NCBI GenBank assembly: GCA_002840535.1
Contig: PHBH01000024.1
Location: 3,261-67,260 of the forward strand
From: Deltaproteobacteria bacterium HGW-Deltaproteobacteria-15
GTDB taxonomy: Bacteria > Desulfobacterota > DSM-4660 > Desulfatiglandales > HGW-15
Direction: 5' to 3'
DNA: 64,000 bases
Shown: one piece after another, positions 17,336-64,000 of the stretch
Layout: every line of letters starts with the position of its first letter
Numbering within the stretch: the first letter of the stretch is position 1
Notes under the pieces: generated by a model
What the model was told of the DNA's origin: nothing
What the model saw: the letters and a program-made list of their open reading frames with translations, nothing else
Database searches by the model: none
Position numbers and translations under genes: made by a program

Positions 17336-17500
17336 AATTCCCAAATCCGAATATCGAATACCGAAATTCGAAACAAACCCGAAAACCCAAATTCTCAAAT
17401 GATCTAAACCCCAACCGTTCATTTGAGTGGATCGTTTTGTTTGGGGCTTTTCGATTTCTGGGTATCTGAACTTGTTTCGGATTTCGTGCTTTGGATTTCT
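17336..17500. repeat. AT-rich region with an inverted pair of 'AAATCCGAA..CGAAAT(A/C)CGAAACAA' motifs. Further copies at 42296-42345 and, more weakly, 58575-58605.
   Basis: Direct comparison: 17340-17375 (+), rc of 17462-17500, and 42305-42340 share about 25-30 nt. Confidence 0.55.
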
Positions 17501-17536
17501 AGATTATTCCTGGGTGTGTCACCAAGTTATGGGGAA

Positions 17537-19467: not shown

Positions 19468-19639
19468 AAGACGCATAGCGCAAAGAGCAAAGACGAGATC
19501 CAGGCGTTACACTGTCTTCTTATCTGGACTCCGGCTGGTGACGGAAAGGTAGCATCAAGCATCGACTGACTGTCCCGCAGGTCCCTGATACCCCCACAAT
19601 TCCCCTCGTACCTGTAAAACTTCTACACTCTGCCCTATC

Positions 19640-19725
19640 CCCTTTGCGCTTTGGGTTCTCTTCCTGTTCGCTATGCGGTTCTATTCGCTTTGCGCTATGC
19701 TCTATGCGCTACGCGGTTCTCTTTC
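19640..19725. repeat. imperfect tandem repeats (GCGCTTTG / GCGCTATG / GCGGTTCT units) in the convergent parB-plsY spacer
   Basis: Read from the sequence. Confidence 0.4.
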
Positions 19726-21129: not shown

Positions 21130-21190
21130 ATCCACACACTGGAATGATGGGATGGAATGATGGAATGATGGAATTTTGGAATAATGGGTT
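21130..21190. repeat. tandem 8-9-bp repeat (GGAATGATGG x about 5)
   Basis: tggaatgatgg-gatggaatgatgg-aatgatgg-aattttgg-aataatggg read from the sequence. Confidence 0.55.
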
Positions 21191-21576
21191 TAATGTGACG
21201 TGGAAATGCTGACCCTCTAGCCAGGTTAGAGACAATCGACTCAGCCGGAAAATATGTCCTTGGAATATTGGAACAATGGAATTGCAGGAAGATGGGTCTC
21301 AAACCGCATAAGGCACTTGCACAACATTCATCTCCCGGTTTTTGGGTGATTACTTCCCAATACTCCATCATACGAGAGGACTTTCTTCACGGCTGAGCCG
21401 ACCGTTGTCACAAATCCTTTGTAAATTCACATACATACTCCTTTTCTTCCCTGTTTTTCCCCCGTCGCCTTGATCTCTGGCCCATTGTTTAGTAGGATGC
21501 CGGCGCATTTGAAATCCAGATCTTCGTACTCTTGATCTTTCCGGATTCCTGAAACCCGTTTATGAAAGGAGCCGAA

Positions 21577-24523: not shown

Positions 24524-24681
24524 TACGAGAGTGTCAATGTGGACAAACTCGTTAAAAGTCGTCATTCCGGCGAAGGCCGGAATCCAGATATCTGCAAGGG
24601 CCCGAAAATACTGGATCCCGGCCTTCGCCGGGATGACGAAAAAGGGTATTTTCGACTTCTTACGAGACCGGCAATGTTGGA
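24524..24681. repeat. twin GC-hairpin element: hairpin 1 (24563-24585) and hairpin 2 (24614-24639) are reverse complements of each other with one compensatory base-pair change. Flanked by 22-bp imperfect direct repeats (ttacgagaNNNNcaatgt.ggac).
   Basis: tcattccggcgaaggccggaatcc versus gatcccggccttcgccgggatgac. Direct repeats at 24524-24545 and 24659-24681. Confidence 0.6.
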
Positions 24682-31229: not shown

Positions 31230-32771
31230 CTACTGATCATCTTTAGCGGGCTTATTCATACTCTTCATATCCCCCAGAAACTTGGGGAGGTCCAGTCCCG
31301 CCATTTCGGCGATGTCATGGAGAGGCGGCAGGCTCTTGACAAAGCCTGAAAGAAAATTGGCTGTCGTGGTGCCGCCGCCGTTCTCTTTTCCTGAATCCCA
31401 AACGGTAATCTTGTCGATTTTGAGATTCTTGATGGCCTCAACCTGCAAGTTCACCAGGTCCTGCAGTTTCTCAATCATCAGGAATGTGCCGGCGGCCTTG
31501 GCATCCCCGCTGCAGCTCTTGACCAGGTCGGAATAACCGGCAGCCTTGCTTTCAAGGACCTTCCTGACGCCTTCAGCCTCTGCCTGGTATCTTAAAAGGA
31601 TCGCGTCGGCCTGACCCTTTGCCACCCTTCGGACCCGTTCGGCCTCTGCTTCCGCCGCAATTTCGATCTTCTGTTTTTCGATTTCCTTCTGGACCACTTC
31701 CTCGGCTATCAACCGTTCACGCTCGGTATTGTACTGGGCTTTTTGGATCTCTTCCATGGCCTTCCGATTGGCCACCTCGCCACGCATATAAGCGTCCGCC
31801 TTCTTGACGGCCAGCTGGGCCTGGGATTCCGCAATATCCGCCTTGGCCGTGTTTTCACCTGCAACCGCCTCTGCCTCCTGCTGCTGCACGTAGATACGTT
31901 TATCGGCTTCGGCCTTTTTCTTGCCTTTTTCTGCTTCTGCAGCATTTTCGGCCACGCGTATGTCTTTTTCCTTGTTCGCAGTGGCTTCACCGATGGTGGC
32001 GGATGTCTCCTGCTGCTGGACAAAAACTCTCCGTTCCGCATCGGCCTTCTTTTTTCCCTTTTCCGCCTCTGCCAGGTTTTCCGCAACGCGGATCTCTTTT
32101 TCCTTGGAAGCCATGGATTGACCGATGGCCCCCAGTTTTTCCTGCTCCGCCACATCGATCTTTGCCTGGTTGATCGCTTCTGCCGCGGCCTTTTTGCCGA
32201 TACTCTCGATGTAGTCGGAAGAATCCGTGATATCCGTAATATTCACATTGATGAGGTACAATCCGATCTTATTGAGCTCCGGAGCCACATTTTTTCGGAT
32301 CTCTTCGAGGAATTTTTCGCGATCCTGGTTGATCTGTTCAATGGTCAGGGACGCAACGGTGAGCCTGAGCTGGCCGAAGATGATCTCCTTGGCCATCTCC
32401 TCGATATCCGTCTGGGGCAGATTCAGGAGCCTTTCCGCTGCATTGTTCATTATGCCTTCTTCAGTGCTGATGCCCACCGTAAATGTGCTGGGGACATTGA
32501 TGCGGATATTCTGCATTGAAAGGGCATTCTGCAGGGGAATGCTGATGGTCATGGGCGTGAGGTCCATGTAAGCATAGTCCTGAATCAGTGGTATGACCAA
32601 CGCGCCCCCGCCGTGGATACATTGGGCTGACTGGCCTTCCCCGACCCTGCCGTAAATCACCAGAATTTTATCAGACGGACACCTTTTGTACCGCGATGCA
32701 AGGAACAGCAAGACCATAAAAATCAATGCCAAAGCTGCAATTATCACCCACAACCAGACTCCGAGTCCCAT
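31230..32771 (-). CDS. flotillin-like SPFH/band-7 protein
   Basis: N-terminal TM, SPFH domain, and a long EA-rich coiled-coil repeat region. Confidence 0.8.
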   Translation of the reverse strand: MGLGVWLWVIIAALALIFMVLLFLASRYKRCPSDKILVIYGRVGEGQSAQCIHGGGALVIPLIQDYAYMDLTPMTISIPLQNALSMQNIRINVPSTFTVGISTEEGIMNNAAERLLNLPQTDIEEMAKEIIFGQLRLTVASLTIEQINQDREKFLEEIRKNVAPELNKIGLYLINVNITDITDSSDYIESIGKKAAAEAINQAKIDVAEQEKLGAIGQSMASKEKEIRVAENLAEAEKGKKKADAERRVFVQQQETSATIGEATANKEKDIRVAENAAEAEKGKKKAEADKRIYVQQQEAEAVAGENTAKADIAESQAQLAVKKADAYMRGEVANRKAMEEIQKAQYNTERERLIAEEVVQKEIEKQKIEIAAEAEAERVRRVAKGQADAILLRYQAEAEGVRKVLESKAAGYSDLVKSCSGDAKAAGTFLMIEKLQDLVNLQVEAIKNLKIDKITVWDSGKENGGGTTTANFLSGFVKSLPPLHDIAEMAGLDLPKFLGDMKSMNKPAKDDQ

Positions 32772-34381: not shown

Positions 34382-34802
34382 GGTATAATCCTCCGTAAAT
34401 TTTCACTCGCTGCCTTCCTCATCTCGATTTCTTATCCAAGACTGAAGCATTGAACATGCCGGACTTGGTTCCTGCGATATAGATCACCTGTTATCAACGA
34501 GATACGGCTTTAAAGATTCTCCCAGTCACGGGTAGTTGAAACCGAATATAGGCCAATGAATCCAAATAGTGACATTTTATACCATTCCTTTTTCAAAAGA
34601 AATGCCACAAAGGCCCGGGAAACACAGACAGAAAAGTCAGGAGCCAGAAGACAGGAGTCAGAAGACAGAAGAATCCGGCAAGGGGCAAGAAAAGGTCTGT
34701 GTCCTTTGGTAAGGCACGGCTGGCGTCCGGAGTCGTTAACTCTACAAACGTCGGAAGCTGGCAGGTACAACAGTTTTCCCGGATTGAAATTTTTATTGAC
34801 GC

Positions 34803-37420: not shown

Positions 37421-37594
37421 GTAGATTTATCCACAGATTCGAAAGAAGGGCCGCAAAGCGAAAGCCGCGCAGTTGCTGATCTCCGACCTCCGATCTCTGA
37501 CCATCTCTATCCGTGTTCATCCGCGTCCCAATTCTTATTTTTCTTTTATGCACCTGCAGACCTCTGGCCTCCGACCTCACTCCCGTTCCCTTTC

Positions 37595-42116: not shown

Positions 42117-42371
42117 GAGAGTCACCTCCTTCCATCCAAGGCCTCGCCGCGGACTTCAAAACCCCGATCAGGCCAAGCAGCTTTGATTCTCAAGGAGGGC
42201 TTCAAATCGGCGATGCACTTGCTTTTTAAGCTAAGGATGAAACATCGAATCGCAAGACGGCGCAAGTGAGTCTCCACCCCCCGAGGGGGGCTCATGCGAG
42301 GGGATATGAATAAATCCGAAATCCGAAGCACGAAATACGAAACAATGCGACACTAGAGAGGAGAATCGACA

Positions 42372-43910: not shown

Positions 43911-45193
43911 ATGTCATCTTCTTCACAATCGTTATGGTCTCCTTTCTCACATCCGCCTGGCAGCAGCTTGTCTGGATCCCGCTGGGGGGCCGAAAAAGCC
44001 CGATGGAAGCGCTTTCCACTGCTGTTGTGGACTCTGCGGCAGGATCCGTCGAACTGGCCCTCGGCCTCATCGGGGTGATGACCCTTTTTCTGGGACTCAT
44101 GAAGGTAGCGGAAGAGGGAGGAATTCTGAAGATTCTGGCGAGGCTCATCCGCCCTCTCATGGTCAGACTGTTCCCCGATGTGCCCCCGGAGCATCCCGCA
44201 ATGGGGGCCATGGTCCTGAACCTCTCCGCCAATGCCATGGGACTCGGAAATGCGGCCACTCCTTTCGGCATAAGAGCCATGCAGGAGCTTGAAAAACTCA
44301 ACCCAAGGCCCGGAACGGCAACGGATGCCATGGCCCTTTTTCTTGCCATCAACACCTCGAGCATCACCCTTCTTCCCACTGGTGTAATCGCCTTGCGCGC
44401 GGCTGCAGGGTCCACGGATCCTGCCGGCATCCTGCCGACCACACTCTTTGCGACTCTCTTCTCCACCGCGATCGCCATCCTTTCCGCTAAGCTTTATCGG
44501 CGGCTCCTCGGAAGAGATGCTGCTATGGCAGGGCCGGGAGTCGAACAAGATCCCGCGGCGCCCCCTGACGCGCCTGTTGAATCCACAGGAAAACCCTATC
44601 CGTTGTGGGTCAGCCTGGCCGCGCTGGTTATGGTTCTTGCCATGGTTCCGGTGACCGTGGTCTACGGCAGGGCCATCTCTCCGTGGGTCATTCCTTTTCT
44701 TGTAGCCGGGTTCCTGGTGTTCGGGATCGCAACGAAAGTCCGGGTCTATGAGGTCTTTGTGGAAGGGGCCAAGGACGGATTTCAGGTTGCTGTCAAAATC
44801 ATCCCCTATCTGGTGGCCATCCTGGTTGCGGTAGGGATGTTCCGCGCCAGCGGCGCCATGGACTTCATGGTCAAATGGCTGGGCCCCCTGACCGGCAGGC
44901 TCGGGCTGCCTCCTGAAGCATTGCCCATGGCACTCATGCGGCCCCTCTCCGGATCAGGCGCATACGGCATCATGGCCTCCATCATAAAGGACCCTGCCGT
45001 TGGTCCTGACAGTTACACGGGCTATCTGGTTTCCACGCTTCAGGGGTGCACGGAGACAACATTCTATGTCATGGCCGTATATTTCGGGGCCGTCCAGGTC
45101 CGCCGGGTCCGATACACCCTGGCAGCAGGGCTCACTGCCGACCTGGCCGGGATTGCAGCCTCTGTGGGTGCCTGTCTTTATTTGTACGGCTGA
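43907..45193 (+). CDS. nucleoside-recognition (Gate) domain membrane protein, SpmA/SpmB-like fusion
   Basis: Two Gate-domain halves. Start ATG 43907 overlaps the creatininase stop (ATGA). Confidence 0.6.
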   Translation: MNVIFFTIVMVSFLTSAWQQLVWIPLGGRKSPMEALSTAVVDSAAGSVELALGLIGVMTLFLGLMKVAEEGGILKILARLIRPLMVRLFPDVPPEHPAMGAMVLNLSANAMGLGNAATPFGIRAMQELEKLNPRPGTATDAMALFLAINTSSITLLPTGVIALRAAAGSTDPAGILPTTLFATLFSTAIAILSAKLYRRLLGRDAAMAGPGVEQDPAAPPDAPVESTGKPYPLWVSLAALVMVLAMVPVTVVYGRAISPWVIPFLVAGFLVFGIATKVRVYEVFVEGAKDGFQVAVKIIPYLVAILVAVGMFRASGAMDFMVKWLGPLTGRLGLPPEALPMALMRPLSGSGAYGIMASIIKDPAVGPDSYTGYLVSTLQGCTETTFYVMAVYFGAVQVRRVRYTLAAGLTADLAGIAASVGACLYLYG

Positions 45194-45353
45194 CAGGTTG
45201 AGCCAATTACTGACAGGAGCTCAAAATAGTTTGCACTCCGACGAGGCCGGCCCATTCTCCCATGCCATGCATGACAAAACGCAAACTATTTTGTGCTCCC
45301 CTCAATATCTTCACTCAGTGTGGGGGGCGCGACATCTCGGTGGTACTTTGACT

Positions 45354-46394
45354 ATGATCTTACGACGCACGCAGGAATCCGGCATCTTTATGCGGCTTGG
45401 CATACTCCTGACCGTCCTGGCTGCCGTCTGCGGTTCGGTAGACCCTTGCCATTCGGCGGAGGACGGTCCGCTGGTCAGCATTCAATTCGAAAACGATTTT
45501 TTCGGAGGTGGCACCGACAGGCATTTCAGCCATGGCTCGCGCATCGAGGTCCTGACAGGAAATATCGACTGGATAGCGGACACGGCGGATAAACTCCCAC
45601 GGTTCAAGACGAGGAGGCCACAGACAGATCCGGAGAAAGAGCTGAAGGCAAGAGTCAGCTTTTCCATCGGCCAGAACATCTATACGCCTGAGGATACGTA
45701 CACATCGGAGCTCGTCCGGGAAGATCGGCCCTATGCAGGGTGGCTCTATTTTGGGGTTGGATTGGTCGCCAACCAGGAGGGCAGTCGATATGACAAGCTC
45801 TATCTCGAGGTTGGGACGGTGGGTCCACACTCCTTTGCAGAGGATGTCCAGACTTACTGGCACTCTCTTTTTGGCCTGCATGTTCCCGAGGGCTGGGACA
45901 ACCAGCTGGAGAATGAACCCGGTGCAGCCCTTTACTACGAACAGGCCAGACGCTTTCCCCGGCCTTTCCTGTTTGGCCTGGGAATGGACATGATCCCTCA
46001 CTTTGGTGGAAGTGTGGGGAATGTCCTCACACACGGTGCTGTGGGACTCACCCTGCGAATCGGTGAAGATCTCGGGAAGGACTTCGGACCCCCGCGAATC
46101 CGCCCCAGTATGCCGGGAGGGACCTTCTACAGCCCTGGAGGAGGGTTCAAATGGTACATCTTCACCGGAGTGGAGGGTCGTGCCGTTCTCTACAACATCT
46201 TCCTCGACGGCAATACCTTTTCAGACAGCCATTCCGTGGACAAGAGACCCTTCGTGGGGGATGTCCAGGCAGGATTGGTGCTCCAGTGGAACCGTTTTCG
46301 ATTCAGCTATACCCAGATCCTCAGAACAAAGGAGTTCGAGGGTCAGGGGGATCCGGACATCTTCGGTTCACTCAGCCTATCCTACCACTTCTAG
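45354..46394 (+). CDS. outer-membrane protein, possibly lipid A deacylase LpxR-family (DUF2219-like)
   Basis: Signal peptide (MRLGILLTVLAAVCGS), ENDFF N-terminal motif, beta-barrel pattern ending in F. The start could be 45390. Confidence 0.4.
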   Translation: MILRRTQESGIFMRLGILLTVLAAVCGSVDPCHSAEDGPLVSIQFENDFFGGGTDRHFSHGSRIEVLTGNIDWIADTADKLPRFKTRRPQTDPEKELKARVSFSIGQNIYTPEDTYTSELVREDRPYAGWLYFGVGLVANQEGSRYDKLYLEVGTVGPHSFAEDVQTYWHSLFGLHVPEGWDNQLENEPGAALYYEQARRFPRPFLFGLGMDMIPHFGGSVGNVLTHGAVGLTLRIGEDLGKDFGPPRIRPSMPGGTFYSPGGGFKWYIFTGVEGRAVLYNIFLDGNTFSDSHSVDKRPFVGDVQAGLVLQWNRFRFSYTQILRTKEFEGQGDPDIFGSLSLSYHF

Positions 46395-46407: not shown

Positions 46408-46652
46408 TTTCACCGCAGAGACGCAGAGCACGCAGAGAGAAGTATTCTTTTCCAATGGCGGGAGATACCGCCATTGGAAAACCCTCGCCCCTGCGCGGGA
46501 GGGGTTTCCTTTTCGCGCTGGTGGAACACTTCGGCAGAGTATTGACTGAGTTCTATATCAGAGAAGAAGATGAGCGAGCCTTTTTGTCTGCGGTCGTCTC
46601 CCCGCAGACAAAAAAGAATTCACTCTGCGCCCTCTGCGTCTCTGCGGTGAAA
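46408..46652. repeat. MITE-like structured repeat, copy 1 (TIR tttcaccgcagagacgcagag / ctctgcgtctctgcggtgaaa; two internal hairpins)
   Basis: Terminal inverted repeats and internal palindromes (ttccaatggcgg...ccgccattggaa; ttgtctgcgg...ccgcagacaa) are shared with 49331-49585 and 63166-63418. Confidence 0.75.
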
Positions 46653-46689: not shown

Positions 46690-46718
46690 TTTGACAGGGG
46701 CACGGCAGCCCCGTAGAA
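46690..46718 (+). promoter_or_regulatory. sigma70 promoter TTGACA-N17-TAGAAT upstream of the aldo/keto reductase gene
   Basis: Read from the sequence. Confidence 0.55.
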
Positions 46719-46780
46719 TGAACATCATCCAGTGATTATTGATCCGGCAGGCAGTTGCGGCCCACGCGGAGGTTTGAAGC

Positions 46781-48010
46781 ATGGCTGAGAATGGAATCAG
46801 CAGAAGAAAGTTCATAATGACCGGTGCAGCCGGCATGGCTGCAGTCGGCCTGGGAGGGTTGACCGGTCGATCGGCCGCCAAGGAATCCTCCGGCGCGCCC
46901 GAGATCGTCACCCGGACCCTCGGCAGAACCGGTCTCCAGATTCCCGTGGTGAGCTTCGGGGTCATGAATTCCGACAGTCCGGATCTTATCCGGAAGGCCA
47001 TCGACTTAGGCATAAGACACCTGGACACGGCCCATCTTTACCTTAGGGGGAACAGTGAGACCGTTATCGGCCTGATCCTTGAGGAACGCCAGTGCCGCGA
47101 AAAGATGATTGTGGCCACGAAGATGTACTTCGATCGGGACAAATATCGGAAGGTCTTCCTCCCCGAAGGCGGGGGGCGGGGCTTTCCCGCCTCCGAGGCC
47201 GGCTTTGACGAGCAGCTCGCGTTGAGCTTGAAGCGGTTGCGAACGGACCACGTGGATATCCTGTATCTTCACAGTTGTGAAGGGCCGCTTATGGCCGCAT
47301 ACGAACCCATGATGAAGATCTTCACCAAGGCAAAAGAGGCAGGGAAGACACGATTCATCGGGATCACCACGCATGCTCAGGAGCCTGAGACCATCCGCGC
47401 CGCAGCCGATACAGGGGTTTGGGACGTCGTTCTCACCTCTTATAACTTCATGCAGAAACATCGGGAAGACGTCAGGGCGGCCATAAAGTATGCCGCCGCA
47501 AAGGGAGTGGGCATTGTGGCGATGAAGACTCAGGGCGGCGTGCAAATGAACAGGGAAAGCCCTGCGCAGGTGAACCACCGCGCAGCCCTCAAGTGGGCGC
47601 TCAACGACAGGAATGTCTGCACTGCAATCCCGGGTATTACCGCGTTCGATCAGATGGATCTTGATTTCGCGGTCATGAAGCACCTCTCCCTGACCCCGGA
47701 TGAGGAAGAGGTTCTGAGAAAATCGGCCGCAGCCACAGGGAGCGTGTATTGCCAGCAATGCGGATCATGCCTGGGATCCTGCCTGCAGAGGGCGCAGATC
47801 CCCACCCTTATGAGGGCCTACATGTATGCCGAGGCTTACCACAATCTCATTCAGGCAGAGATCGCCATGGCTGAAATCCCCGAGGGGCAGGGTCTTGATG
47901 CTTGCGGGGGCTGTGAGGAGTGCTCCGCTGTCTGCCGCTTCGGAATCCCTATCCCGAGCCGCATCCAATCCCTTGCGGCCATGGGGTTCCCCGGCAGAAG
48001 GATCGCATAA
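46781..48010 (+). CDS. Tat-secreted aldo/keto reductase with C-terminal Cys-rich (Fe-S-like) extension
   Basis: RRKFIMTGAAGMAAVG twin-arginine signal; AKR core; C-terminal CQQCGSC...CGGCEEC. Confidence 0.7.
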   Translation: MAENGISRRKFIMTGAAGMAAVGLGGLTGRSAAKESSGAPEIVTRTLGRTGLQIPVVSFGVMNSDSPDLIRKAIDLGIRHLDTAHLYLRGNSETVIGLILEERQCREKMIVATKMYFDRDKYRKVFLPEGGGRGFPASEAGFDEQLALSLKRLRTDHVDILYLHSCEGPLMAAYEPMMKIFTKAKEAGKTRFIGITTHAQEPETIRAAADTGVWDVVLTSYNFMQKHREDVRAAIKYAAAKGVGIVAMKTQGGVQMNRESPAQVNHRAALKWALNDRNVCTAIPGITAFDQMDLDFAVMKHLSLTPDEEEVLRKSAAATGSVYCQQCGSCLGSCLQRAQIPTLMRAYMYAEAYHNLIQAEIAMAEIPEGQGLDACGGCEECSAVCRFGIPIPSRIQSLAAMGFPGRRIA

Positions 48011-48949
48011 GTGGTCCCCTCTTCTCTCCTGACAATGATCCTGGCCCTATTCCTGTCCCTCTCGGCCGTAAGCCGGTCCATGGCCGAAGCGGACCTCTCC
48101 GGCTCCGGCTCGAACGAAAAGGAGAGTCTCCTGGCGCTTCTGCCGAAGAAGGAGGAAATCCCGGAGATCAAGGAAAGCTCGGTTCCGGAATTCTACGGAC
48201 CTCAGAATCTCTTCGACTACATCAACGGCGAGGCCGAGACCTATCTGGATTATGGTTTTAATCTCTTGCTCACAAGGGAATACCTCGACAAAGAAGGCTC
48301 GATCATCACCATTGAGATCTACCGGATGAAAAGTCCTCTGCACGGATTCGGCATCTATGCTGCGGAGCGCACCCCGGATGACAAGGTGGTGGACATCGGC
48401 ACCCAGGGAATTCAAGGTGGAAATATCGTGGCGTTCTGGAAAGGAGGTTACTATTGTAAAATCCTTTTCCACCGGATGTCGCCGGGTCTGGACTCGGTCC
48501 TCCTGAAGACAGCGAGACTCATTGCCGGCAAGATCGAAGGAGACTACTCCCTGCCCGAGCTCTTTTCTGTTTTTCCTGAAAAGCACAGGGTGAAAGGGAG
48601 CGAACGATTCATCCCCAGGAACTTCCAGGGGCAACCCTATCTGAGAAACGGCTATCGGGTGGATTATGAAAGAGAGGGAAAGAGATTCCAGGTCTTTCTC
48701 GTTCACCCGGGCTCCATGGAAGCGGCTAAGGAGACATATTTGAAGTACCAGGAGTTTCTTAGGACCGAGCACGCGAATCCCTCCCGGATAGAAAGCGGCG
48801 AGTACGAGATGGCCCGCGTTCCCGGTGAACAGGAGAAACTGCTTTTCAGGTATGGCACATTCTGGGGCGGGGTGCTTGGTGAAAAGGATTTCAGCGCTGC
48901 TGAAAGAATTGTCCAAAAAATGGTTGAGAAACTGAAGCCACGAAATTGA
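48011..48949 (+). CDS. secreted hypothetical protein
   Basis: Signal peptide; no family recognised. Confidence 0.4.
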   Translation: MVPSSLLTMILALFLSLSAVSRSMAEADLSGSGSNEKESLLALLPKKEEIPEIKESSVPEFYGPQNLFDYINGEAETYLDYGFNLLLTREYLDKEGSIITIEIYRMKSPLHGFGIYAAERTPDDKVVDIGTQGIQGGNIVAFWKGGYYCKILFHRMSPGLDSVLLKTARLIAGKIEGDYSLPELFSVFPEKHRVKGSERFIPRNFQGQPYLRNGYRVDYEREGKRFQVFLVHPGSMEAAKETYLKYQEFLRTEHANPSRIESGEYEMARVPGEQEKLLFRYGTFWGGVLGEKDFSAAERIVQKMVEKLKPRN

Positions 48950-49320
48950 AACTGAACAACAGGGAATTCGACAGGATAGTGAAAGGTGCGGTGATGCGCA
49001 TCCCTGAGGAGATCCGGCAGCATCTCGAGAATATCGTGATTTCCGTGCAGAAGAGACCCTCTGCGGAACTCCTCGAGGAAATAGGATTTGATGCCGAAGA
49101 CGAGCTTCTGGGGCTCTTTCAAGGTACCTCCCAAATCGAGCGCTCCATTACGTCGCCTCCACTGTTTCCGGACACCATCCTCCTGTTCCAGGAGCCTCTT
49201 GAGGAAATTTGCGAAACCGTGGAGGAGCTGGAGGAAGAGATCGAAATCACCATCGTGCATGAGATCGCCCATGCACTCGGCATGAGCGAAGAGAAGCTGG
49301 CCGAGCTGGGGTATGAGTAA
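48946..49320 (+). CDS. metallopeptidase-family protein (HExxH; DUF1025-like)
   Basis: IVHEIAHALGM motif; family-like N-terminus. TTG start overlapping the upstream stop (TTGA). An alternative ATG at 48994 has an AAAGGTG SD. Confidence 0.6.
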   Translation: MKLNNREFDRIVKGAVMRIPEEIRQHLENIVISVQKRPSAELLEEIGFDAEDELLGLFQGTSQIERSITSPPLFPDTILLFQEPLEEICETVEELEEEIEITIVHEIAHALGMSEEKLAELGYE

Positions 49321-49330
49321 GAGACAGGAG

Positions 49331-49585
49331 TTTCACCGCAGAGACGCGGAGGGCGCAGAGAATATATCTTTTTTGTCCGCGGGGAGACGACCGCGGACAA
49401 AAAGGATCGCTCAGCATCCCATTGTTCATTTTAAGGGCCCTCGAGGACGAACTCCTACGCCATCTATAGCAAGAGTTTTAAGAACCCGACTCGCCAGCGC
49501 AACGGCAGATCTTTTCCAATGGCGGTATCTCCCGCCATTGGAAAAATGTTTGTCTTCTCTGCGTGCTCTGCGCCTCTGCGGTGAA
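49331..49585. repeat. MITE-like structured repeat, copy 2 (inverted relative to copies 1 and 3)
   Basis: Same TIRs and the same two hairpins in reversed order. Confidence 0.75.
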
Positions 49586-49656: not shown

Positions 49657-50211
49657 ATGGACAAAGTAGTCATTTCCATACTGGGACGGGACAGGCCCGG
49701 CATTGTGGGGGCCGTGTCCAGGATTCTCCTCGACAGAGGCTGCAACATCGAGGATGTGACCCAGACGAGTCTTCAGGCGGAGTTCGCCGGCATCTTCATC
49801 GCATCGATGCCCGATAATCTCGCACCCTCCACCCTCCTTGCGGCCTTGAAAGCCGGCTTGGCGCCTTTTGGAGTCGATGTGCTGGTGAAGCGGCTCGAAC
49901 GCAGGCCCGCGCATTCATCCCCAAGCAGTGCCGAACCCTTCGTTATCACGACCATGGGACCGGACAGGATGGGCCTCGTAGCCGGGGTGACGGAGGTCAT
50001 GGCGCGGTTCGGAGTCAATATCACAAACATGAAGGCCGTGTTTCGAGGAGGAACGGACCCCTTCCGGAACATCATGATCTACGAAGTGGACGTGGACCGG
50101 CAGATAGACCACGCCGCCTTCCGCACCGCTCTTCGCGAAAGAGCACAGGAGCTCGATCTCGACATCACCATCCAGCACCGGCGCATATTCGAGGCCATCA
50201 ACAGGGTGTAG
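49657..50211 (+). CDS. tandem-ACT domain protein (UPF0237-like)
   Basis: Two ACT-like halves (ISILGRDRPGIVGAVS..; TTMGPDRMGLVAGVT..). Confidence 0.7.
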   Translation: MDKVVISILGRDRPGIVGAVSRILLDRGCNIEDVTQTSLQAEFAGIFIASMPDNLAPSTLLAALKAGLAPFGVDVLVKRLERRPAHSSPSSAEPFVITTMGPDRMGLVAGVTEVMARFGVNITNMKAVFRGGTDPFRNIMIYEVDVDRQIDHAAFRTALRERAQELDLDITIQHRRIFEAINRV

Positions 50212-55495: not shown

Positions 55496-56842
55496 ATGAA
55501 CAATGTCTGGGAATCGTTGAAGGAGGCTCTCCGGTCCAAGGTGCCCGAGAAAAGCTACTCGCTCTGGATCAAGCCAATCACCCTTCTCGAACACAAAGAA
55601 AGCACCCTTCTCCTGGGGTGTCCCAACAAGTTCTCCCTGAACTGGGTCATGGAGAATTATGGCGAGATCATGGAGGAGCGGCTTCGAGAAATCTCGGAGG
55701 GCAGTTGCAGCTTCCACCTGAAGGTCATGCCCGCACCGAAGAACGTCCCGAAGCAGGCCCTGAAGGATGAACCACAGTTGGTCCTTCCCCACGTGCCCGT
55801 GACTCCCCGAAGGGGCTGGAGGACCCTGAATCACGATTTCACGTTCGACCGGTTCGTGGTAGGGAAATGCAACGAATTCGCCTATTCGGCATCCAAAGCT
55901 CTCGCGCTGGAGTCCAGCTTCCCCTATAACCCCCTTTTCCTTCTGGCAAACACCGGGTTGGGAAAAAGCCATCTCTCTCAGGCCGTCGGCCATGCCATGC
56001 TCCAGAACAAACCCGACCTCAGGGTTTATTACATCACAGCAGAAGACTTCGTAAACGAAATGATCTGGGCACTCAAGAACAACTCCATCGAGGAGTTCAA
56101 AGGAAAATACCGCAGATCCTGCGATGCATTGCTCCTCGAAGAGGTGCACTTCCTGAGCGGCAAGGAGAAGACGCAGGTGGAACTGGGATACACCCTGGAC
56201 GCCCTGGCCGATGACCATAAGAAGATCATTTTCACGAGCTCGGTCCTTCCCAAGGATATCCCCAATCTGTCAAAGGAGCTTTACTCTCGCTTCAACTCAG
56301 GGCTGATCGCCACCCTGGACATGCCCGACTATGACACGCGGTTGAAGATTCTGGAAAAAAAGGCCTCTGAGCAGAACCTCCACCTGTCGGATGAAATCGT
56401 CCACCTGCTCGCAGAGAAGCTCCCCGGAGACATTCGTCAGATGGAGAGCGCCCTTCGCTGCTTGAAGGCCAAATCCGAACTCCTGAAAGCCAAGATCGAC
56501 ATGGACCTGGCGAGAGAGGTTCTGCAATGCCATGTCTCCGAGGAGAGCGGCTCGAATCAGGAAGACATCAGGGCGCTCGTCTGCCGGTATTTCAAAATAG
56601 ATCCATCCGTGCTGCAATCTAAATCGAGAAAAGCAGCCCATTCGTATCCCCGGAATGTGTATGTCTACCTCTGCCGCAGGCACACCAGCATGACCCTGGA
56701 GCAGATCGGGCAGTCCATCAACAGGAATCATTCCACCATCGTGTATGCCTGTGAGGTGATCGAGCGAAAGATGAAGGCCGATGCAAAGGTGAAGAACCAG
56801 ATCGCTTTTTTCGGCCAGAGGCTCAGAGGAGTACAGGCATAA
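55496..56842 (+). CDS. dnaA: chromosomal replication initiator DnaA
   Basis: AAA+ Walker A/B, DnaA signature, and C-terminal DNA-binding helix (VYVYLCRRHT..SMTLEQIGQ). Confidence 0.95.
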   Translation: MNNVWESLKEALRSKVPEKSYSLWIKPITLLEHKESTLLLGCPNKFSLNWVMENYGEIMEERLREISEGSCSFHLKVMPAPKNVPKQALKDEPQLVLPHVPVTPRRGWRTLNHDFTFDRFVVGKCNEFAYSASKALALESSFPYNPLFLLANTGLGKSHLSQAVGHAMLQNKPDLRVYYITAEDFVNEMIWALKNNSIEEFKGKYRRSCDALLLEEVHFLSGKEKTQVELGYTLDALADDHKKIIFTSSVLPKDIPNLSKELYSRFNSGLIATLDMPDYDTRLKILEKKASEQNLHLSDEIVHLLAEKLPGDIRQMESALRCLKAKSELLKAKIDMDLAREVLQCHVSEESGSNQEDIRALVCRYFKIDPSVLQSKSRKAAHSYPRNVYVYLCRRHTSMTLEQIGQSINRNHSTIVYACEVIERKMKADAKVKNQIAFFGQRLRGVQA

Positions 56843-57411: not shown

Positions 57412-58527
57412 ATGGCTTATCCTATGATACGAAGCTTGGCAAAAGTGGCAATCCTTGCAGCAATGTTGTTGGGGCTTCCTCTTCTGGGAATCCTCCTTGC
57501 CTCCATGCCCCTGCAGCCTTATCTGGAGTTCCCTCCTGCCACCCTTTACGTTACCCACGCGCCTTTTTCCTGGGTTGTTTTCCTGGCCTATGCCCTTTTT
57601 GTCCTTCTGATAGTTACGCCCTTCCTCAGGAGGAATCTTGCAGTAAATGGCGCGGCCGAATCTTCGACGGTCGGACCCGCGACCAGGTTCCCCTGGTGGG
57701 GATGGCTGGGGCTTGTCTTCGGAGTTCTTTCCTGGATCCTTGCCTGGACCCGCTTCCCGTGGTTTGAAGCGCTTCAGACCCACACCTTCACCCCCCTTTG
57801 GCTATCCTACGTCATCACCATGAATGCGTTGGCCTATCGGAGAACCGGGACTTGCCTCCTCATCGACCGTCCTATCGCTTACCTGCTCCTTTTTCCTGTG
57901 AGCGCCATTTTCTGGTGGTTCTTCGAGTACCTGAACAGGTTTGTTCAGAACTGGTACTATGTGGGCCCACCGCTGAATCCTATCGAGTATTTCTGGTACG
58001 CCACTCCCGCCTTTTCGACGGTTCTGCCCGCCTTCACCGCTACCCGGGAGTGGGTTCTTTCCTTTTCATGGCCGAAGAGATTCCACCATTTTCTTCCGAT
58101 CTCCGTACCAAGACCAAAGACGATAGGCGCCCTGGTGCTGATGATTGCCGCACTGGGGCTCGCGGGTCTTGGGGTGTTCCCCGATTATCTTTTCGCGCTC
58201 TTATGGATTTCCCCTCTGCTCATTCTGGTCTCCCTGAAGGCCATGTTCGGGGAGCATCATATCTTCTCCAACCTGAACCACGGCGACTGGAGTCTCGTGA
58301 TCGCCTCCGCGGTCTCCGCCCTCGTTTGCGGGTTCTTCTGGGAGATGTGGAATTTCTTCAGCCTTGCGAAGTGGATTTATCAGGTCCCTTTCGTTGCGAG
58401 GTTTCACATCTTTGAAATGCCCTTGATCGGTTATGCCGGGTATCTCCCATTCGGGGTGGAGTGTGCGGTGATCGTGGAGATGGTGATGAGGAAAGATACA
58501 AGATCCAGGTTACATGATGCAGGATAA
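57412..58527 (+). CDS. polytopic membrane protein, function unknown
   Basis: About 9 hydrophobic segments, rich in W/F/Y. Confidence 0.5.
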   Translation: MAYPMIRSLAKVAILAAMLLGLPLLGILLASMPLQPYLEFPPATLYVTHAPFSWVVFLAYALFVLLIVTPFLRRNLAVNGAAESSTVGPATRFPWWGWLGLVFGVLSWILAWTRFPWFEALQTHTFTPLWLSYVITMNALAYRRTGTCLLIDRPIAYLLLFPVSAIFWWFFEYLNRFVQNWYYVGPPLNPIEYFWYATPAFSTVLPAFTATREWVLSFSWPKRFHHFLPISVPRPKTIGALVLMIAALGLAGLGVFPDYLFALLWISPLLILVSLKAMFGEHHIFSNLNHGDWSLVIASAVSALVCGFFWEMWNFFSLAKWIYQVPFVARFHIFEMPLIGYAGYLPFGVECAVIVEMVMRKDTRSRLHDAG

Positions 58528-58745
58528 AAGATTCAGGATGCACGATGCAGGATGAAAAGACAAAGAGTAGAAGACTTCTTGGACGCGGATTTTACGGATT
58601 CACACGGATTTGAAAAGATTTTCTTGTCGAACCAAAAGAGACTTATCCGTCTTCATCTGTGTTCATCCGTGTCCCAATAATCATGTCCTTTTTCCTCTTA
58701 TCCTGAATCCCCTCATCTTGGATCTTGCATCCTTCATCATTCCAA
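58505..58745. repeat. inverted pair of 'GATGCAGGAT' repeat blocks (58505-58555 forward, 58695-58745 reverse) flanking a 140-bp insert
   Basis: Same block type as 63105-63160 and 63465-63520. The insert carries the tgtgttcatccgtgtcccaat motif, also found at 37513-37533. Confidence 0.6.
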
Positions 58746-59549
58746 GCGCAGGGATACATCGCCGCAGAGGATCTTTCTTCTGACGCCACTTTCCAGTTCG
58801 AGAATCAGAGCACCCGTCTGATCTATTCGGACTGCCCTGCCTCTTATCGTCTCAGCGCCGGTCTCGACCATGACATTTCTGCCCAGGATCAGCGAAAGGT
58901 CGTTCCATTTCGAATAAATGAGATGCGTATCTCCATTGAGAAAAGCGCCGTAGCTGTTCTCGAATTCCTTCAGGATCCGGACAAGGAGGTCGGCCCTTGG
59001 AAACACCTTTCCTGTTTCCATCCTGACGCTGGTGGCAGGACCCCTGATTTCTTCTTGCCCGGCCGGATGCCACTGAACGTTCAGCCCCATACCCAGGACC
59101 ACATAATCGACGGAACTGCCTTTGACGCCGAATTCAGTGAGAATGCCCGCGAGCTTTCTTTGGCCCGCATAAAGATCGTTGGGCCATTTGATCCGAGCGG
59201 CAACACCCGTTCTCCTGTGGAGGACTTCAGCGGCCGAGACTGCCAGGATCATGGTTAGAGCGAAGACTTGTTCGGGTTCAACACGGGCCCGGAGAAGAAT
59301 GGAGAAAAGAAGATTGGCGCCGGGCAGGGAAAGCCAGCTTCTTCCCACTCGCCCTCTACCCCCGGTCTGTGCATCGGCCACCACAACCGTGCCGTCAGGC
59401 GCGCCGTTTGCGGCAAGGGATTTTAAGAGGCTGTTGGTCGATTCCAGGGTAGCGTGATATCGGAGGTCGACCCCGAAAAAGGTCCCGGATAACGCGCGCC
59501 GAAGCTCCTGGGGGTCAATCGGGTCGGATGGGCGGGGGTCATTGGTCAT
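58737..59549 (-). CDS. birA: biotin--[acetyl-CoA-carboxylase] ligase (group I, no HTH domain)
   Basis: GGRGRVGRSW biotin-binding motif, KWPNDL. Confidence 0.8.
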   Translation of the reverse strand: MTNDPRPSDPIDPQELRRALSGTFFGVDLRYHATLESTNSLLKSLAANGAPDGTVVVADAQTGGRGRVGRSWLSLPGANLLFSILLRARVEPEQVFALTMILAVSAAEVLHRRTGVAARIKWPNDLYAGQRKLAGILTEFGVKGSSVDYVVLGMGLNVQWHPAGQEEIRGPATSVRMETGKVFPRADLLVRILKEFENSYGAFLNGDTHLIYSKWNDLSLILGRNVMVETGAETIRGRAVRIDQTGALILELESGVRRKILCGDVSLRLE

Positions 59550-63085: not shown

Positions 63086-63165
63086 GGTTGTTTCTCCCAT
63101 TCAAAATGCAGAATACAGGATCCAGGATTCAGGATGCCAAGACAGGATGCAGGAACAGAAAAGAT

Positions 63166-63418
63166 ATCACCGCAGAGTACGCGGAGAGAGACTCATTCTT
63201 AAATGGCGGAGATGCCGCCATTTAAAAAGACTCAGCCTGCTTTAATGAGCCGGTTGTCTCCGGCCTGTGCCCTTGATGCTGCGTAGACGGAGTGCGCTTT
63301 ACGAGCCGAAAAGATTAAAGACGGGAGTTGATCTGTGAGCGCCCCTTCTTGTCTGCAGTCGTCTCCCTGCAGACAAGAAAGAGAGTTCTCTCTGCGAACT
63401 CTGCGTCTCTGCGGTGAA
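63166..63418. repeat. MITE-like structured repeat, copy 3, in the gyrB-gyrA spacer
   Basis: TIR tcaccgcagagtacgcggagag / ctctgcgtctctgcggtga. Hairpins carry compensatory changes (ttaaatggcgg..ccgccatttaa). Confidence 0.7.
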
Positions 63419-63517
63419 TACCTTGTTGTTTTCAACCCTTTCGCGTCTTTGCGTGAAACCCCTTCTCTTTTATCCTGCGTCCTGCAACTTGGATCCTGAA
63501 ACCTGCATCCTTCAGTA

Positions 63518-63999
63518 TTAAATATCCAGCTCCCTGACTTCCAGTGCGTTTGTCTGGATAAAGTCCCTTCTGGGCTCTACCTTGTCGCCCATGAGAATGG
63601 TGAAGATCTCATCGGCCTCCACCACGTCTTCCACTTTGACCTTCAACAGCGTCCTCTTGTCCGGGTCCATGGTGGTTTCCCACAGCTGACCCGGGTTCAT
63701 CTCTCCAAGGCCTTTGTATCTCTGGATCGTCAATCCCTTTTTCCCTTTTTCCTGAAGAAAGTCGAAGAGCGCCCTCAACCCCTTCAGTTCTTTTCCATCC
63801 CCGTCGCCGGAGAGTACAAACGTGGCGCCGTTCCAGTCCTTGAACCGCTCCCCAAGGACCATGATGCGTTTGAGCTCAGGGGAGGAGATGACCTCCCAGT
63901 TCACATCCATGGTTCTTCCCTGGTTGAACTGCTCGGTCACGCTGAATTCGTAATATCCCCTTCCTTCCTGGTCCAGCCGTTTCTCTTCTACCCTGTAAC
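63518..63999 (-). CDS. gyrB: DNA gyrase subunit B, C-terminal part (gene continues beyond the window edge)
   Basis: C-terminal GyrB motifs ([17 protein letters not shown]). The reading frame stays open to the window end. Confidence 0.9.
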
Positions 64000-64000
64000 C

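Follow-up and report, generated by a model that had tools for sequence, protein, structure and literature searches.

What are the three intergenic repeats of about 250 bp that lie in a metagenomic contig of Deltaproteobacteria bacterium HGW-Deltaproteobacteria-15, one of them between gyrB and gyrA? From sequence alone, they had been read as a MITE-like, non-autonomous repeat family with a DNA or RNA secondary structure under selection or, alternatively, as a structured small-RNA family. Here, we analysed the window, that is the whole stretch of 64,000 nucleotides in which they occur, together with relatives of the repeats in other genomes, metagenomes and viral contigs.

Anatomy and setting of the three copies

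All three copies that the sequence-only reading had placed at 46408-46652, 49331-49585 and 63166-63418 are present (Table 1), and its claims that copy 2 is inverted, that every copy is intergenic and that each carries two internal hairpins around a variable core held as well. The claim of 21-bp terminal inverted repeats (TIRs) held only in part, since the arms are longer. Each arm spans ~30 nt, in which TTCACC is followed by three tandem CGCAGAG units joined by purine linkers of 1-2 nt, and an inverted-repeat search on copy 1 returned 44-nt arms with 86% complementarity. The 20-mer CTCTGCGTCTCTGCGGTGAA, with up to 3 mismatches allowed, matches five of the six window-copy ends compared to none in 100 shuffles; the sixth, which is copy 3's left end, is one 8-nt sub-repeat short in the alignment of the copies. 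The core enclosed by the hairpins is not conserved among the three copies. All copies are non-coding and measure 243-254 bp. A fourth one lies just outside the window (L121:3319-3715), which brings to four the number found on this contig, and many relatives occur in metagenomes.

Table 1. Positions of the repeat copies, their parts and the modules around copy 3 (window coordinates).
Feature	Position	Strand	Description
Copy 1, whole element	46409..46651	+	243 bp; between LpxR and aldo/keto reductase genes; starts 14 nt past the LpxR stop codon, aldo/keto reductase gene 130 nt downstream
Copy 1, left terminal repeat	46409..46439	+	TTCACC then three CGCAGAG units
Copy 1, variant-loop hairpin	46448..46481	+	TTTTCCAATGGCGG / loop GAGATA / CCGCCATTGGAAAA; 14-bp stem
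Copy 1, variable core	46482..46580	+	no ORF; no detectable GxxExxY remnant
Copy 1, canonical-loop hairpin	46581..46614	+	TTTTTGTCTGCGG / loop TCGTCTCC / CCGCAGACAAAAA; 13-bp stem; loop is GGAGACGA on the inward-reading strand
Copy 1, right terminal repeat	46623..46651	+	three CTCTGCG units then GTGAA
Copy 2, whole element	49332..49585	-	254 bp, inverted relative to copy 1; between Zincin_1 and ACT-domain genes; starts 11 nt past the Zincin_1 stop codon
Copy 2, terminal repeat	49332-49362		
Copy 2, hairpin	49370-49403		loop GGAGACGA
Copy 2, hairpin	49512-49545		loop TATCTC
Copy 2, terminal repeat	49555-49585		
Outer CAGGAT-type heptamer-repeat palindrome, one arm	63106..63165	n/a	encloses copy 3 (nested)
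Copy 3, whole element	63167..63418	+	about 251 bp; gyrB-gyrA spacer
Copy 3, left repeat	63167-63190		one 8-nt unit missing
Copy 3, hairpin	63196-63228		loop AGATG
Copy 3, hairpin	63346-63379		loop TCGTCTCC
Copy 3, right repeat	63390-63418		
Solo CGCAAAG-type repeat arm	63438..63459	-	GTTTCACGCAAAGACGCGAAAG on the minus strand; directly flanks copy 3
Outer CAGGAT-type palindrome, other arm	63466..63512	n/a	

The copies are positioned between the stop codon of one gene and the ribosome-binding site of the next, either within co-directional gene pairs or at their borders, and both orientations relative to transcription are found among them. One of these pairs is gyrB-gyrA, which had been described as normally tightly linked; the two genes are indeed adjacent in this clade but not universally in bacteria. 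There, copy 3 is nested within two other repeat modules. In relatives, CGCAAAG-type arms are found in the same spacer (L296 and L298), L296 carrying both arms of one element. CAGGAT, CCGAAAT and CGCAAAG modules all occur in the window, as do many other tandem-unit arrays of similar kind.

Two known kinds of site were considered for the copies and rejected. An intrinsic terminator is excluded by the T runs that precede and the A runs that follow both stems on either strand, the consensus scan giving only incidental matches, and integron attC sites by end motifs that misfit the R''/R' consensus.

Hairpins are maintained by compensatory change and terminal arms as sequence

Copy 3 had been reported to carry stem-preserving compensatory substitutions. 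This held, and we found more such changes than those first given: in hairpin 1, copy 3 replaces C-G by T-A and C-G by A-T, while in hairpin 2 a T-A pair is replaced by C-G in copy 2 and a G-C pair by A-T in copy 3. The sequence-only reading had also proposed a covariation analysis across many copies. By collecting 55 distinct hairpins with a GGAGACGA loop, we found them to be 95% paired against 66.5% in shuffles, 222 both-sides-changed cells against 65, and a covariation score of 0.78 compared to 0.23 for shuffles and at most 0.17 for slid controls. Covariation is thus strong in the hairpins, which are maintained by compensatory change, and on this ground the claim of a structure under selection held.

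The loops are conserved as GGAGAYRN on the inward-reading strand while the stem sequence varies freely, and the hairpins sit about 50 nt inward of each end. In a set of 45 elements, the partner hairpin, on which no selection had been made, nearly always has a G(G)AGA-type loop that reads inward, the opposite orientation being found only once; its stem is unlike that of the first hairpin in 44 of the 45. The two loops are complementary to each other, and the two ends of the element are related by dyad symmetry.

Pairing was also examined in the terminal arms. Linker position 11 has 96 Watson-Crick pairs for 79.5 expected and a maximum of 102, and the linkers do not covary. G.T and A.C mismatches are equally frequent in the arms, without per-element strand bias (P = 0.88), a comparison that is a valid RNA-versus-DNA test on TIR arms. 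The pooled G.U and A.C count in the hairpins (13 against 17) is confounded by dyad symmetry. The terminal arms are therefore conserved as sequence rather than pairing, which points to protein recognition of DNA ends and not to a single structured RNA.

Distribution, turnover and the GxxExxY partner

The terminal 20-mer occurs in at least 120 stretches from more than 12 phyla, isolate genomes included (Algoriphagus sp. A40), and viral contigs supply 52 stretches in which it is found. At these loci, palindromic elements of 52-546 bp have the 20-mer at their ends. Most TIR-selected elements lack both hairpins and the ORF described below, so that the terminal repeat persists without either of them. 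The novelty of the family would have been refuted if its copies had shown no covariation and its TIRs had been unique to the three loci, which is far from the case, or if the copies had been fragments of a known IS or Rfam family. Rfam, which had been suggested as a check, gave no match at gathering score anywhere in the window, and for copy 1 at E ≤ 10 only spurious microRNA-hairpin matches far below threshold. The tRNA/tmRNA scan returned nothing, and BLASTN of copy 1 in distant mode found no match among PLSDB plasmids and INPHARED phages.

The spacers occupied by these elements undergo turnover from one close relative to another. The gyrB-gyrA spacer measures 432 bp in the window and 16 bp in the closest relative (96% GyrA identity), and in relatives at 89-95% GyrA identity it spans 215-342 bp filled by other repeat types. 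Similarly, the Zincin-ACT spacer is 336 bp long in the window compared to about 3-12 bp in L309. We did not find a clean filled-versus-empty pair for a single element, as the relatives lacked the whole composite or carried different modules.

Full-length relatives of 440-665 bp display the same ends and the same two hairpins around a gene for a protein of 125-135 aa. This protein is GxxExxY (TIGR04256/PF13366), of the PD-(D/E)XK nuclease fold, which resembles that of restriction endonucleases; its residue D67 never varies and E77 and K79 hardly do, which gives the PD...(D/E)xK motif. TIR-GxxExxY-TIR units were found in three loci, with ORFs matching TIGR04256 at E = 4.5e-44 and 6.7e-43, and a GxxExxY coding sequence, intact or decayed, is present in 10 of the 15 TIR pairs whose spacing is 330-2500 bp. 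Six loci have a GxxExxY ORF between these same two hairpins, and the ORF of L307, from a MAG labelled 'Deltaproteobacteria bacterium', is likewise set between two hairpins of this type, of which one has an enlarged loop. Thus, ORF-bearing and ORF-less forms have ends and hairpins in common, and by these features the window copies belong to the GxxExxY cassette family.

On viral contigs, five of seven GxxExxY genes, picked by protein similarity alone, are bracketed by inverted repeats of 46-56 nt, which are made up of lineage-specific tandem sub-repeats. In L042, the gene lies between two complete mini-palindromes and not within one TIR pair. The family comprises ~30,000 clusters at 50% identity, fused tandem forms among them, and many paralogues that are 84-90% identical come from very short contigs, a pattern that a multicopy repeat would produce. 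Searches of GxxExxY against the PDB by sequence and against PHROGs gave no match, and in the literature on GxxExxY, PF13366 and PDDEXK we found only a table entry reading 'unknown, multiple transfers'. No GxxExxY gene was detected in the window by tblastn, nor among the genes called on an additional ~10 kb of the contig, the host genome beyond the contig being outside the search. The copies were to be checked for an autonomous partner transposase according to the sequence-only reading; the ORF-bearing partner that we found, with the same ends and hairpins, encodes a nuclease-fold protein and not a known transposase. To our knowledge, 125-aa PD-(D/E)XK proteins are not known as transposases.

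Target-site duplications, another suggested check, were not found: there was none of fixed length in 185 non-redundant elements at offsets 0-5 and lengths 2-8, the strongest direct-repeat signal being 8 of the 185 elements for 1.1 expected.

Proposed origin, rival explanations and meaning

On balance, and with modest confidence, we favour the reading that the three copies are ORF-less, MITE-like derivatives of a small selfish cassette that encodes a ~125-aa GxxExxY nuclease-fold protein. They are classed as derivatives rather than full members because they hold neither an ORF nor a remnant detectable by tblastn. The proposal of a MITE-like, non-autonomous family is in this way supported and extended by the ORF-bearing partner, but the elements are not classical MITEs. 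In the mechanism that we infer, the ends would be recognition sites for a protein on DNA, probably a dimer; dimer recognition fits since fused tandem GxxExxY proteins exist. The nuclease would cut at or near the ends or the extruded hairpins, and cutting would cause the element to be copied to other intergenic locations with no target-site duplication. As for the copies in the window, they would be relics unless a master copy elsewhere in the genome supports them. Mobilisation by GxxExxY is inferred and not shown, given the absence of target-site duplications, a nuclease that is not a known transposase and the lack of a master copy in the window. It remains possible that GxxExxY is mere cargo travelling between two repeat modules, as L042 might illustrate. 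For the host, the copies are probably tolerated rather than useful, since they have no canonical intrinsic terminator and lie between a stop codon and the next ribosome-binding site.

A bolder version of the cassette reading, which taken as a whole we consider more apt to fail than to hold, is that GxxExxY cassettes form an unrecognised class of mobile elements found across phyla. The ~125-aa protein, as a dimer, would recognise ends made of tandem 8-9-bp sub-repeats together with loop-specific hairpins and would move or copy the cassette without target-site duplication. The heptamer- and octamer-repeat palindromes in the intergenic spacers of environmental bacteria would be its non-autonomous progeny, including the Geobacter 'global regulator sites' discussed below and the CAGGAT, CCGAAAT and CGCAAAG modules of the window.

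Several known systems resemble these elements in part. Like bacterial MITEs (e.g. Correia/NEMIS of Neisseria; class reviewed in PMC3184786), the copies are ~250 bp long, ORF-less, multicopy, intergenic and bounded by TIRs, longer relatives with the same ends carry an ORF, and nested insertions occur. Unlike them, they show no target-site duplication, their partner ORF encodes a PD-(D/E)XK nuclease fold rather than a DDE transposase, and their TIRs are arrays of tandem 8-9-bp sub-repeats whose sequence is shared across phyla instead of being confined to a single lineage. The intervening sequences (IVSs) of 23S rRNA in Coxiella and Leptospira, with an ORF for the four-helix-bundle protein S23p (PMC4990558), are likewise selfish, with about 430-760 nt, ~28-bp terminal inverted repeats, one ~120-aa ORF that is often decayed, a patchy distribution suggesting horizontal transfer and an unknown means of movement. 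However, their ORF belongs to another family, and they lie in defined rRNA helices and are known from excision by RNase III at the RNA level, whereas the elements described here are intergenic, with subterminal loop-conserved hairpins and no sign of RNA-pairing selection in the arms. A location in 23S rRNA helix 9, 25 or 45 does not apply, as the copies lie between protein-coding genes and Rfam detected no rRNA in the window. As to excision by RNase III, all that the copies offer is a predicted stem of about 30 bp.

The closest published arrays are the 'putative global regulator binding sites' of classes 1-3 in the deltaproteobacterium Geobacter metallireducens (Aklujkar et al. 2009, PMC2700814), paired and oppositely oriented sets of 3-5 tandem hepta- or octanucleotides with variable spacing, which are multicopy and intergenic. 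The class 2 unit TCTCCGTS[Y] (x3) is the complement of the CACGGAG-type arm, seen for example in L028. But the Geobacter work gives a catalogue and a guess at regulator sites, without a link that we could find to an ORF, mobility, hairpins or other phyla, and the CGCAGAG unit is absent from its listed classes (PMC2700814). The heptamer repeats called STRR in cyanobacteria were considered as a relative, and the literature search gave nothing more on them. When full texts were searched for the TIR strings, nothing relevant came up, only papers whose titles concern eukaryotic and clinical subjects. In the literature searched, there is thus no published description of this repeat family, only the generic paired tandem-octamer arrays of the 2009 study.

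Among the rival explanations, the copies could be cis-acting RNA structures of the host, in which the transcribed ~30-bp TIR stem and the hairpins serve as an RNase III site, mRNA stabiliser or insulator, as in an excised 23S rRNA IVS. The predicted RNA fold of copy 1 is very stable (-137.9 kcal/mol; z = -11.4 against shuffles as RNA, -13.8 as DNA), the copies accompany co-directional gene pairs such as gyrB-gyrA, the complementary loops could kiss, and RNase III cuts the Coxiella IVS, which is 428 nt long, contains a small ORF and has a terminal stem of 28 bp (PMC4990558). We nevertheless find this unlikely: covariation is absent from the variable positions of the TIR arms, G.U and A.C mismatches occur equally often without per-element strand bias, the dyad symmetry of the loops is expected of equivalent DNA ends and needless for a single RNA, both orientations relative to transcription occur, and 16 bp between gyrB and gyrA suffice in the closest relative. 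It does not exclude the cassette reading, since processing could be a side effect of insertion. Slightly less likely still, in our view, is that the arrays are binding sites of a host nucleoid or global regulator protein (IHF/HU or gyrase) that spread by recombination and not by an enzyme of their own. The G. metallireducens arrays were so interpreted, with global regulators, perhaps IHF/HU, as candidates (Aklujkar et al. 2009, PMC2700814), arms kept as sequence are consistent with protein binding, and the window holds many other such arrays. But this leaves unexplained the near-identical 20-mers across phyla and viral contigs, the close physical association with a single small ORF family and the rapid swap of array types at the same spacer in close relatives.

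We regard both remaining alternatives as very unlikely. If the elements were REP/REPIN- or IS200/IS605-like, an HUH tyrosine transposase, RAYT or TnpA, with its gene at another place in the genome, would move single-stranded hairpin DNA, and GxxExxY would be only a frequent passenger. The absence of target-site duplication, the apparent hairpin-based recognition with conserved loops and free stems, and the organisation as multicopy, intergenic inverted doublets speak for it. However, no HUH or RAYT gene was found in or next to any TIR pair examined (the host genome beyond the contig was outside the search), and GxxExxY is the only recurrent ORF there. REP and IS200 ends lack long TIRs of tandem sub-repeats with a sequence shared across phyla, and most family members have no hairpins at all. 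The TnpA/TnpB genes and asymmetric, TIR-less ends that define IS200/IS605 are likewise lacking, the ends here being inverted repeats with dyad symmetry and no such ORFs having been seen at the TIR pairs examined. The sequence-only reading had offered as its alternative a small-RNA family, here taken as regulatory RNAs with their own promoters. Covarying hairpins and a stable fold would suit it, but dyad symmetry and the non-covarying TIR arms disfavour it. In addition, the promoter scan found no promoter-like site within the copies, the stems, with T runs before and A runs after them, are not of the terminator type, the core is not conserved, and there is neither strand asymmetry nor an Rfam match. 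A single strong promoter-like site was seen (46691-46719), beyond the limits of copy 1; two of the three relatives examined (L308 and L309) retain it upstream of the aldo/keto reductase gene and have no copy 1.

Environmental genomes and MAGs abound in intergenic palindromes built of short tandem units, which interrupt assemblies and tend to be passed over or put down, by guesswork, as regulator sites. One such family now has a precise anatomy, a spread over more than 12 phyla and viral contigs, and a physically linked protein family, PF13366/TIGR04256, which has no known function. A common and unexplained type of intergenic repeat is in this way tied to a candidate mobile element, one that can occupy essential operons such as gyrB-gyrA and turn over there between strains with 96% GyrA identity. 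The lineage-specific sub-repeat units hint at a modular code of protein-DNA recognition. If the nuclease does mobilise these ends, a minimal enzyme would be performing transposition or homing by a new chemistry, a very large 'unknown' family would gain a function, and the spread of ORF-containing rRNA intervening sequences, a question open since the early 1990s, might be explained.

Copies in the window and their setting

The sequence-only reading had claimed three ~250-bp repeat copies with 21-bp terminal inverted repeats (TIRs), two internal hairpins each, compensatory changes in the stems and an inverted second copy. We found all three copies where it had placed them, with copy 2 inverted and both internal hairpins present in every copy. 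The claim on the TIRs held only in part, as the arms are present but longer, ~30 nt each. With up to 3 mismatches permitted, CTCTGCGTCTCTGCGGTGAA, the terminal 20-mer, matched five times in the window versus 0 in 100 shuffles, and alignment of the copies indicated that the sixth end (copy 3, left) misses one 8-nt unit. Arms consist of TTCACC and, after it, three tandem CGCAGAG units spaced by 1-2 purines; in a repeat search, those of copy 1 reached 44 nt at 86% complementarity. The alignment also confirmed the compensatory changes, with four pair changes among only three copies: C-G to T-A and C-G to A-T in hairpin 1 (copy 3 compared to the others), and T-A to C-G (copy 2) and G-C to A-T (copy 3) in hairpin 2. 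In the predicted fold of copy 1, both hairpins and a variable core sit inside the stem formed by the TIRs (-137.9 kcal/mol, z = -11.4 as RNA; -81.9 kcal/mol, z = -13.8 as DNA). In a fourth copy, the right arm is split by a ~36-nt insertion (CTCTGCGTCTC / CCGCGAAACAGCACACGGGATCTAAAAGGATCCGCG / GTGAA) and the second hairpin has a different stem, with the loop GCATCTCC.

Positions of the repeat copies, their flanking genes (Pfam) and other features (window positions unless a comparison locus, L, is named)
Feature	Position	Description
Copy 1	46409-46651	upstream LpxR 45000-46394 (+); downstream aldo/keto reductase 46781-48010 (+)
Copy 2	49332-49585	inverted; upstream Zincin_1 48946-49320 (+); downstream ACT-domain gene 49657-50211 (+)
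Copy 3	63167-63418	upstream gyrB C-terminus 63518-64000 (-); downstream gyrA 60665-63100 (-)
Fourth copy	L121:3319-3715	same contig, outside the window; longer
Internally deleted copy	L084:4481-4590	
Sigma-70-like promoter	46691-46719	TTGACA, 17-nt spacer, TAGAAT; 11/12 matches; between copy 1 and aldo/keto reductase gene
DnaA-family genes	55496-56842 (+); L121:4627-5883	
Direct repeat	31903-32146	112 nt x2, 132 nt apart, 72% identity; in long minus-strand ORF 31230-32771
Nested palindromes	58488-58740	209-bp spacer before gene 58737-59549 (-); outer CAGGAT-type heptamer arrays 58488-58556 and ~58700-58740; inner CGGATT/ATCCGT-type arrays 58585-58611 and 58645-58670
Inverted array pair	19468-19720	CGCATAG/CGCAAAG-type, GACGCATAGCGCAAAGAGCAAAGACGAG ... 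GCTTTGCGCTATGCTCTATGCGCTACGCGGTTC; fills 241-bp spacer of two convergent ORFs
7-9-nt tandem-repeat modules	17472-17509; 42308-42345; 21150-21282; 34626-34671; 37478-37578	intergenic; units CCGAAAT, GGAATGAT, CAGAAGA, CTCCGAC
Palindrome	24559-24639	81 bp, TCGTCATTCCGGCGAAGGCCGGAATCCAG ... CTGGATCCCGGCCTTCGCCGGGATGACGA; 29-nt arms, 93% complementary

The contig (JGI metagenome Ga0246098_00332) includes the dnaA-dnaN-gyrB-gyrA origin region, and the GyrA encoded in the window shows 100% identity to the one from “Deltaproteobacteria bacterium HGW-Deltaproteobacteria-15”. The contig carries two DnaA-family genes ~10 kb apart: one lies upstream of dnaN-gyrB-gyrA, the other (448 aa) inside the window. 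The promoter next to copy 1 is part of the gene rather than of the element, since it is kept in two relatives without copy 1 (L308 and L309). The direct repeat lies within an ORF and therefore suggests a repeated protein segment.

ORF-bearing relatives and spread of the family

In three comparison loci (L009, L033 and L084), both arms enclose an ORF of 124-125 aa, which in L009 (E = 4.5e-44) and L033 (E = 6.7e-43) matches the NCBIfam family TIGR04256 “GxxExxY protein”. A metagenome scan for left arms that have the window's hairpin loop, GGAGACGA, 15-45 nt after them gave many elements with the window's exact order: arm, GGAGACGA-loop hairpin, core, second hairpin (loop TCGTCTCC or TATCTCC), arm. 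The majority are ORF-less and 160-305 bp long. Elements of 566-665 bp (L123, L137, L173, L183, L194 and L204) have a GxxExxY gene, intact or decayed, between the two hairpins; the 540-bp L232 has one between the same arms. Also, GxxExxY coding sequence was found inside 10 of the 15 arm pairs spaced 330-2500 bp, and one such unit (L307) is part of a 118-kb contig whose MAG bears the label “Deltaproteobacteria bacterium”. The window copies are members of this family, whose ORF-less and ORF-bearing forms have common ends and hairpins.

We then considered an independent sample of seven GxxExxY genes on viral contigs, picked by protein similarity only. Inverted repeats of 46-56 nt bracket five of them. 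Their arms consist of tandem sub-repeats specific to the lineage, for example CACAAAG units or, behind a CGCTTCGCTTGAAA cap, 12-nt TTTTACTTAAAA units. Because this protein-chosen sample agrees with the arm-pair data, the arm architecture is a property of the GxxExxY gene family, and CGCAGAG is one dialect of it.

In L084, the internally deleted copy adjoins a full (frameshifted) TIR-GxxExxY-TIR unit, its first ~20 ORF codons being fused straight to the right arm. This could possibly be a snapshot of how ORF-less derivatives arise.

An alignment of 33 family members shows no variation at D61 and D67 and hardly any at E77 and K79; together with the GxxExxY motif, these conserved residues correspond to PD...(D/E)xK. 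The AlphaFold model was of moderate quality (pLDDT 68, pTM 0.58), PADLOC returned nothing but a weak Cas4 core match, sequence comparison gave no relative in PDB, and no PHROG matched. A profile search (E <= 1e-3) gave 29,987 clusters at 50% identity, including fused tandem duplicates (two full domains, ~270-295 aa), which suggest that the single-domain protein works as a dimer. Its nearest relatives come in swarms: paralogues that are 84-90% identical and sit on 0.5-2.5 kb contigs, as would be the case for a multicopy repeat that fragments assemblies. A 2012 survey of PD-(D/E)XK proteins gave PF13366, the Pfam family of this protein, no known function and noted “multiple transfers” (PMC3424549).

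The family is spread widely and horizontally. All abundances from the collection scans are lower bounds. With one genome per GTDB species, CTCTGCGNCTCTGCGGTGAA was found in at least 120 stretches, whose record titles include Chloroflexota, Acidobacteriota, Planctomycetota, Armatimonadota, Chlamydiae, Nitrospinota, Thermodesulfobacteriota, Bacteroidota (Algoriphagus, Chryseobacterium), Verrucomicrobia (Pedosphaera, Akkermansiaceae), Beta- and Gammaproteobacteria, Heliomicrobium, Gemmatimonadales, Desantisbacteria, Poribacteria and others; several matches come from contigs of megabase scale, and one from an isolate genome. At least 52 further stretches with the terminal motif were found in viral contigs of IMG/VR. 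In these loci, palindromic elements of 52-546 bp have this motif as one outer end and the mirrored TTCACCGCAGAGRCGCAGAG as the other, and sister types have the same layout with other units (CGCCAAG, CACAGAG, CATGAAG, CACAAAG, CACGGAG), often nested in each other. The two-hairpin subfamily is a minority of the TIR-selected elements (3-5/51) and, among labelled genomes, was found only in Desulfobacterota-type MAGs.

Selection, symmetry and turnover

The hairpins are under structural selection and the arms under sequence selection. Across the collected loci, unbroken stems of at least 8 bp, with 67 distinct sequences, close 118 GGAGACGA loops. For covariation we used 55 distinct hairpins pre-filtered at >=10/13 Watson-Crick pairs, a filter that inflates the paired percentage (95% of cells observed, 66.5% shuffled) but not double-sided changes (222 versus 65). 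The covariation score was 0.78, compared to 0.23 in shuffled and 0.17 or less in slid controls. Counted from the loop, every stem pair from 2 to 9 has three or four different Watson-Crick types; at 5, 8 and 9 all four are present. The terminal arms behave in the opposite way: their CGCAGAG units are nearly invariant, complementarity between arms at variable linker positions was not above chance (position 11: 96 Watson-Crick versus 79.5 expected, maximum 102), and G.T and A.C combinations were equally frequent, with no excess of either within single elements (P = 0.88). Since linkers do not covary and G.T equals A.C, the arms are conserved as sequence and not as duplex, with no strand favoured.

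The elements have dyad symmetry. In 45 elements picked via one end only, the other, unselected end had a G(G)AGA-type loop (GGAGACGA, GGAGACGG, GAGATA or GAGATG) on its own inward-reading strand in nearly all cases and in the opposite orientation in one; the stems of an element's two hairpins differ in 44/45. As unselected ends mirror selected ones, each end is an equivalent module, that is a sub-repeat array and a loop-specific hairpin. The loop complementarity that hints at a kissing interaction is yielded automatically by this symmetry.

Turnover is rapid: the compared spacers gain and lose modules over a few percent protein divergence.

gyrB-gyrA spacers in the window and in close relatives, with GyrA identity
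Locus	GyrA	Spacer	Content
Window	100%	432 bp	copy 3 + nested modules
L295	96%	16 bp	TAA ttcagggagaacaacc ATG
L296	95%	232 bp	CAGGAT half + complete CGCAAAG-type element
L297	93%	215 bp	CCGAAAT-type palindrome
L298	89%	342 bp	CAGGAT outer arms, CGCAAAG-type arms within

All these spacers retain the ribosome-binding site, and in the window a CAGGAT-type palindrome encloses a solo CGCAAAG-type arm and then copy 3. The Zincin-ACT spacer is ~3-12 bp in L309 versus 336 bp in the window, and holds a different element (CGCAAAG arms and a GGAGACGA hairpin) in L310. Between LpxR and the aldo/keto reductase gene, the TTGACA/TAGAAT pair is kept in the window, L308 and L309 while the modules upstream of it differ among all four loci. 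None of the relatives compared had a clean site empty of just one CGCAGAG element, so the exact insertion footprint is undefined. The conserved boundary is TT/CACC...GGTG/AA, with mildly A-rich left and T-rich right flanks, and no fixed-length direct repeat was enriched at any offset in 185 non-redundant elements.

Other spacers of the window also hold repeat modules. The nested palindromes have the same layering as the surroundings of copy 3, and the CGCATAG/CGCAAAG-type pair is likely another dialect of the same superfamily. The CCGAAAT-type module also fills the gyrB-gyrA spacer in L297. The 81-bp palindrome is of a different, unidentified repeat family; GGGATC/CCGGCATGAC palindromes resembling it fill spacers in L296.

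Known systems and proposed mechanism

Rfam had no family for the window elements, annotated plasmid and phage records contained no similar DNA, and a full-text literature search found no paper with the TIR strings. The same generic layout was catalogued in 2009 in Geobacter metallireducens as “putative global regulator binding sites”, namely paired, opposed tandem hepta-/octanucleotide arrays for which IHF/HU binding was guessed (PMC2700814). That catalogue made no link to an ORF or to mobility. Among described selfish elements, the 23S rRNA intervening sequence with an ORF comes closest in size and layout (428 nt, 28-bp terminal stem, S23p ORF, RNase III excision, mobility unexplained; PMC4990558). 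Compared to classical MITEs, the window family fails the target-site duplication criterion and its partner is not a known transposase; in contrast to REPIN/RAYT and IS200/IS605, no HUH enzyme is associated with it. A single functional RNA would not need the dyad symmetry, which is as expected of equivalent transposon-like ends recognised on DNA. We rejected hairpins as terminators, as the stems have T runs before them and A runs after them on either strand, and terminator and promoter scans of the window copies gave nothing convincing; that no terminator activity is expected fits with tolerated insertion inside an operon.

We infer that the arms and loops would be the recognition sites of a dimeric protein, which may be the linked GxxExxY nuclease, although whether this is the mobilising enzyme or mere cargo is unresolved. 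The nuclease would start to copy or move the element, possibly from extruded hairpins or cruciforms, with no staggered cut in the target. Copies in the window may be mobilised in trans or be relics; a master copy is putative, since only ~75 kb of the host genome could be searched. The parent GxxExxY cassette family has probably not been described as a mobile element, and the window elements are akin to the MITE/REPIN kind, as a variant not seen before.
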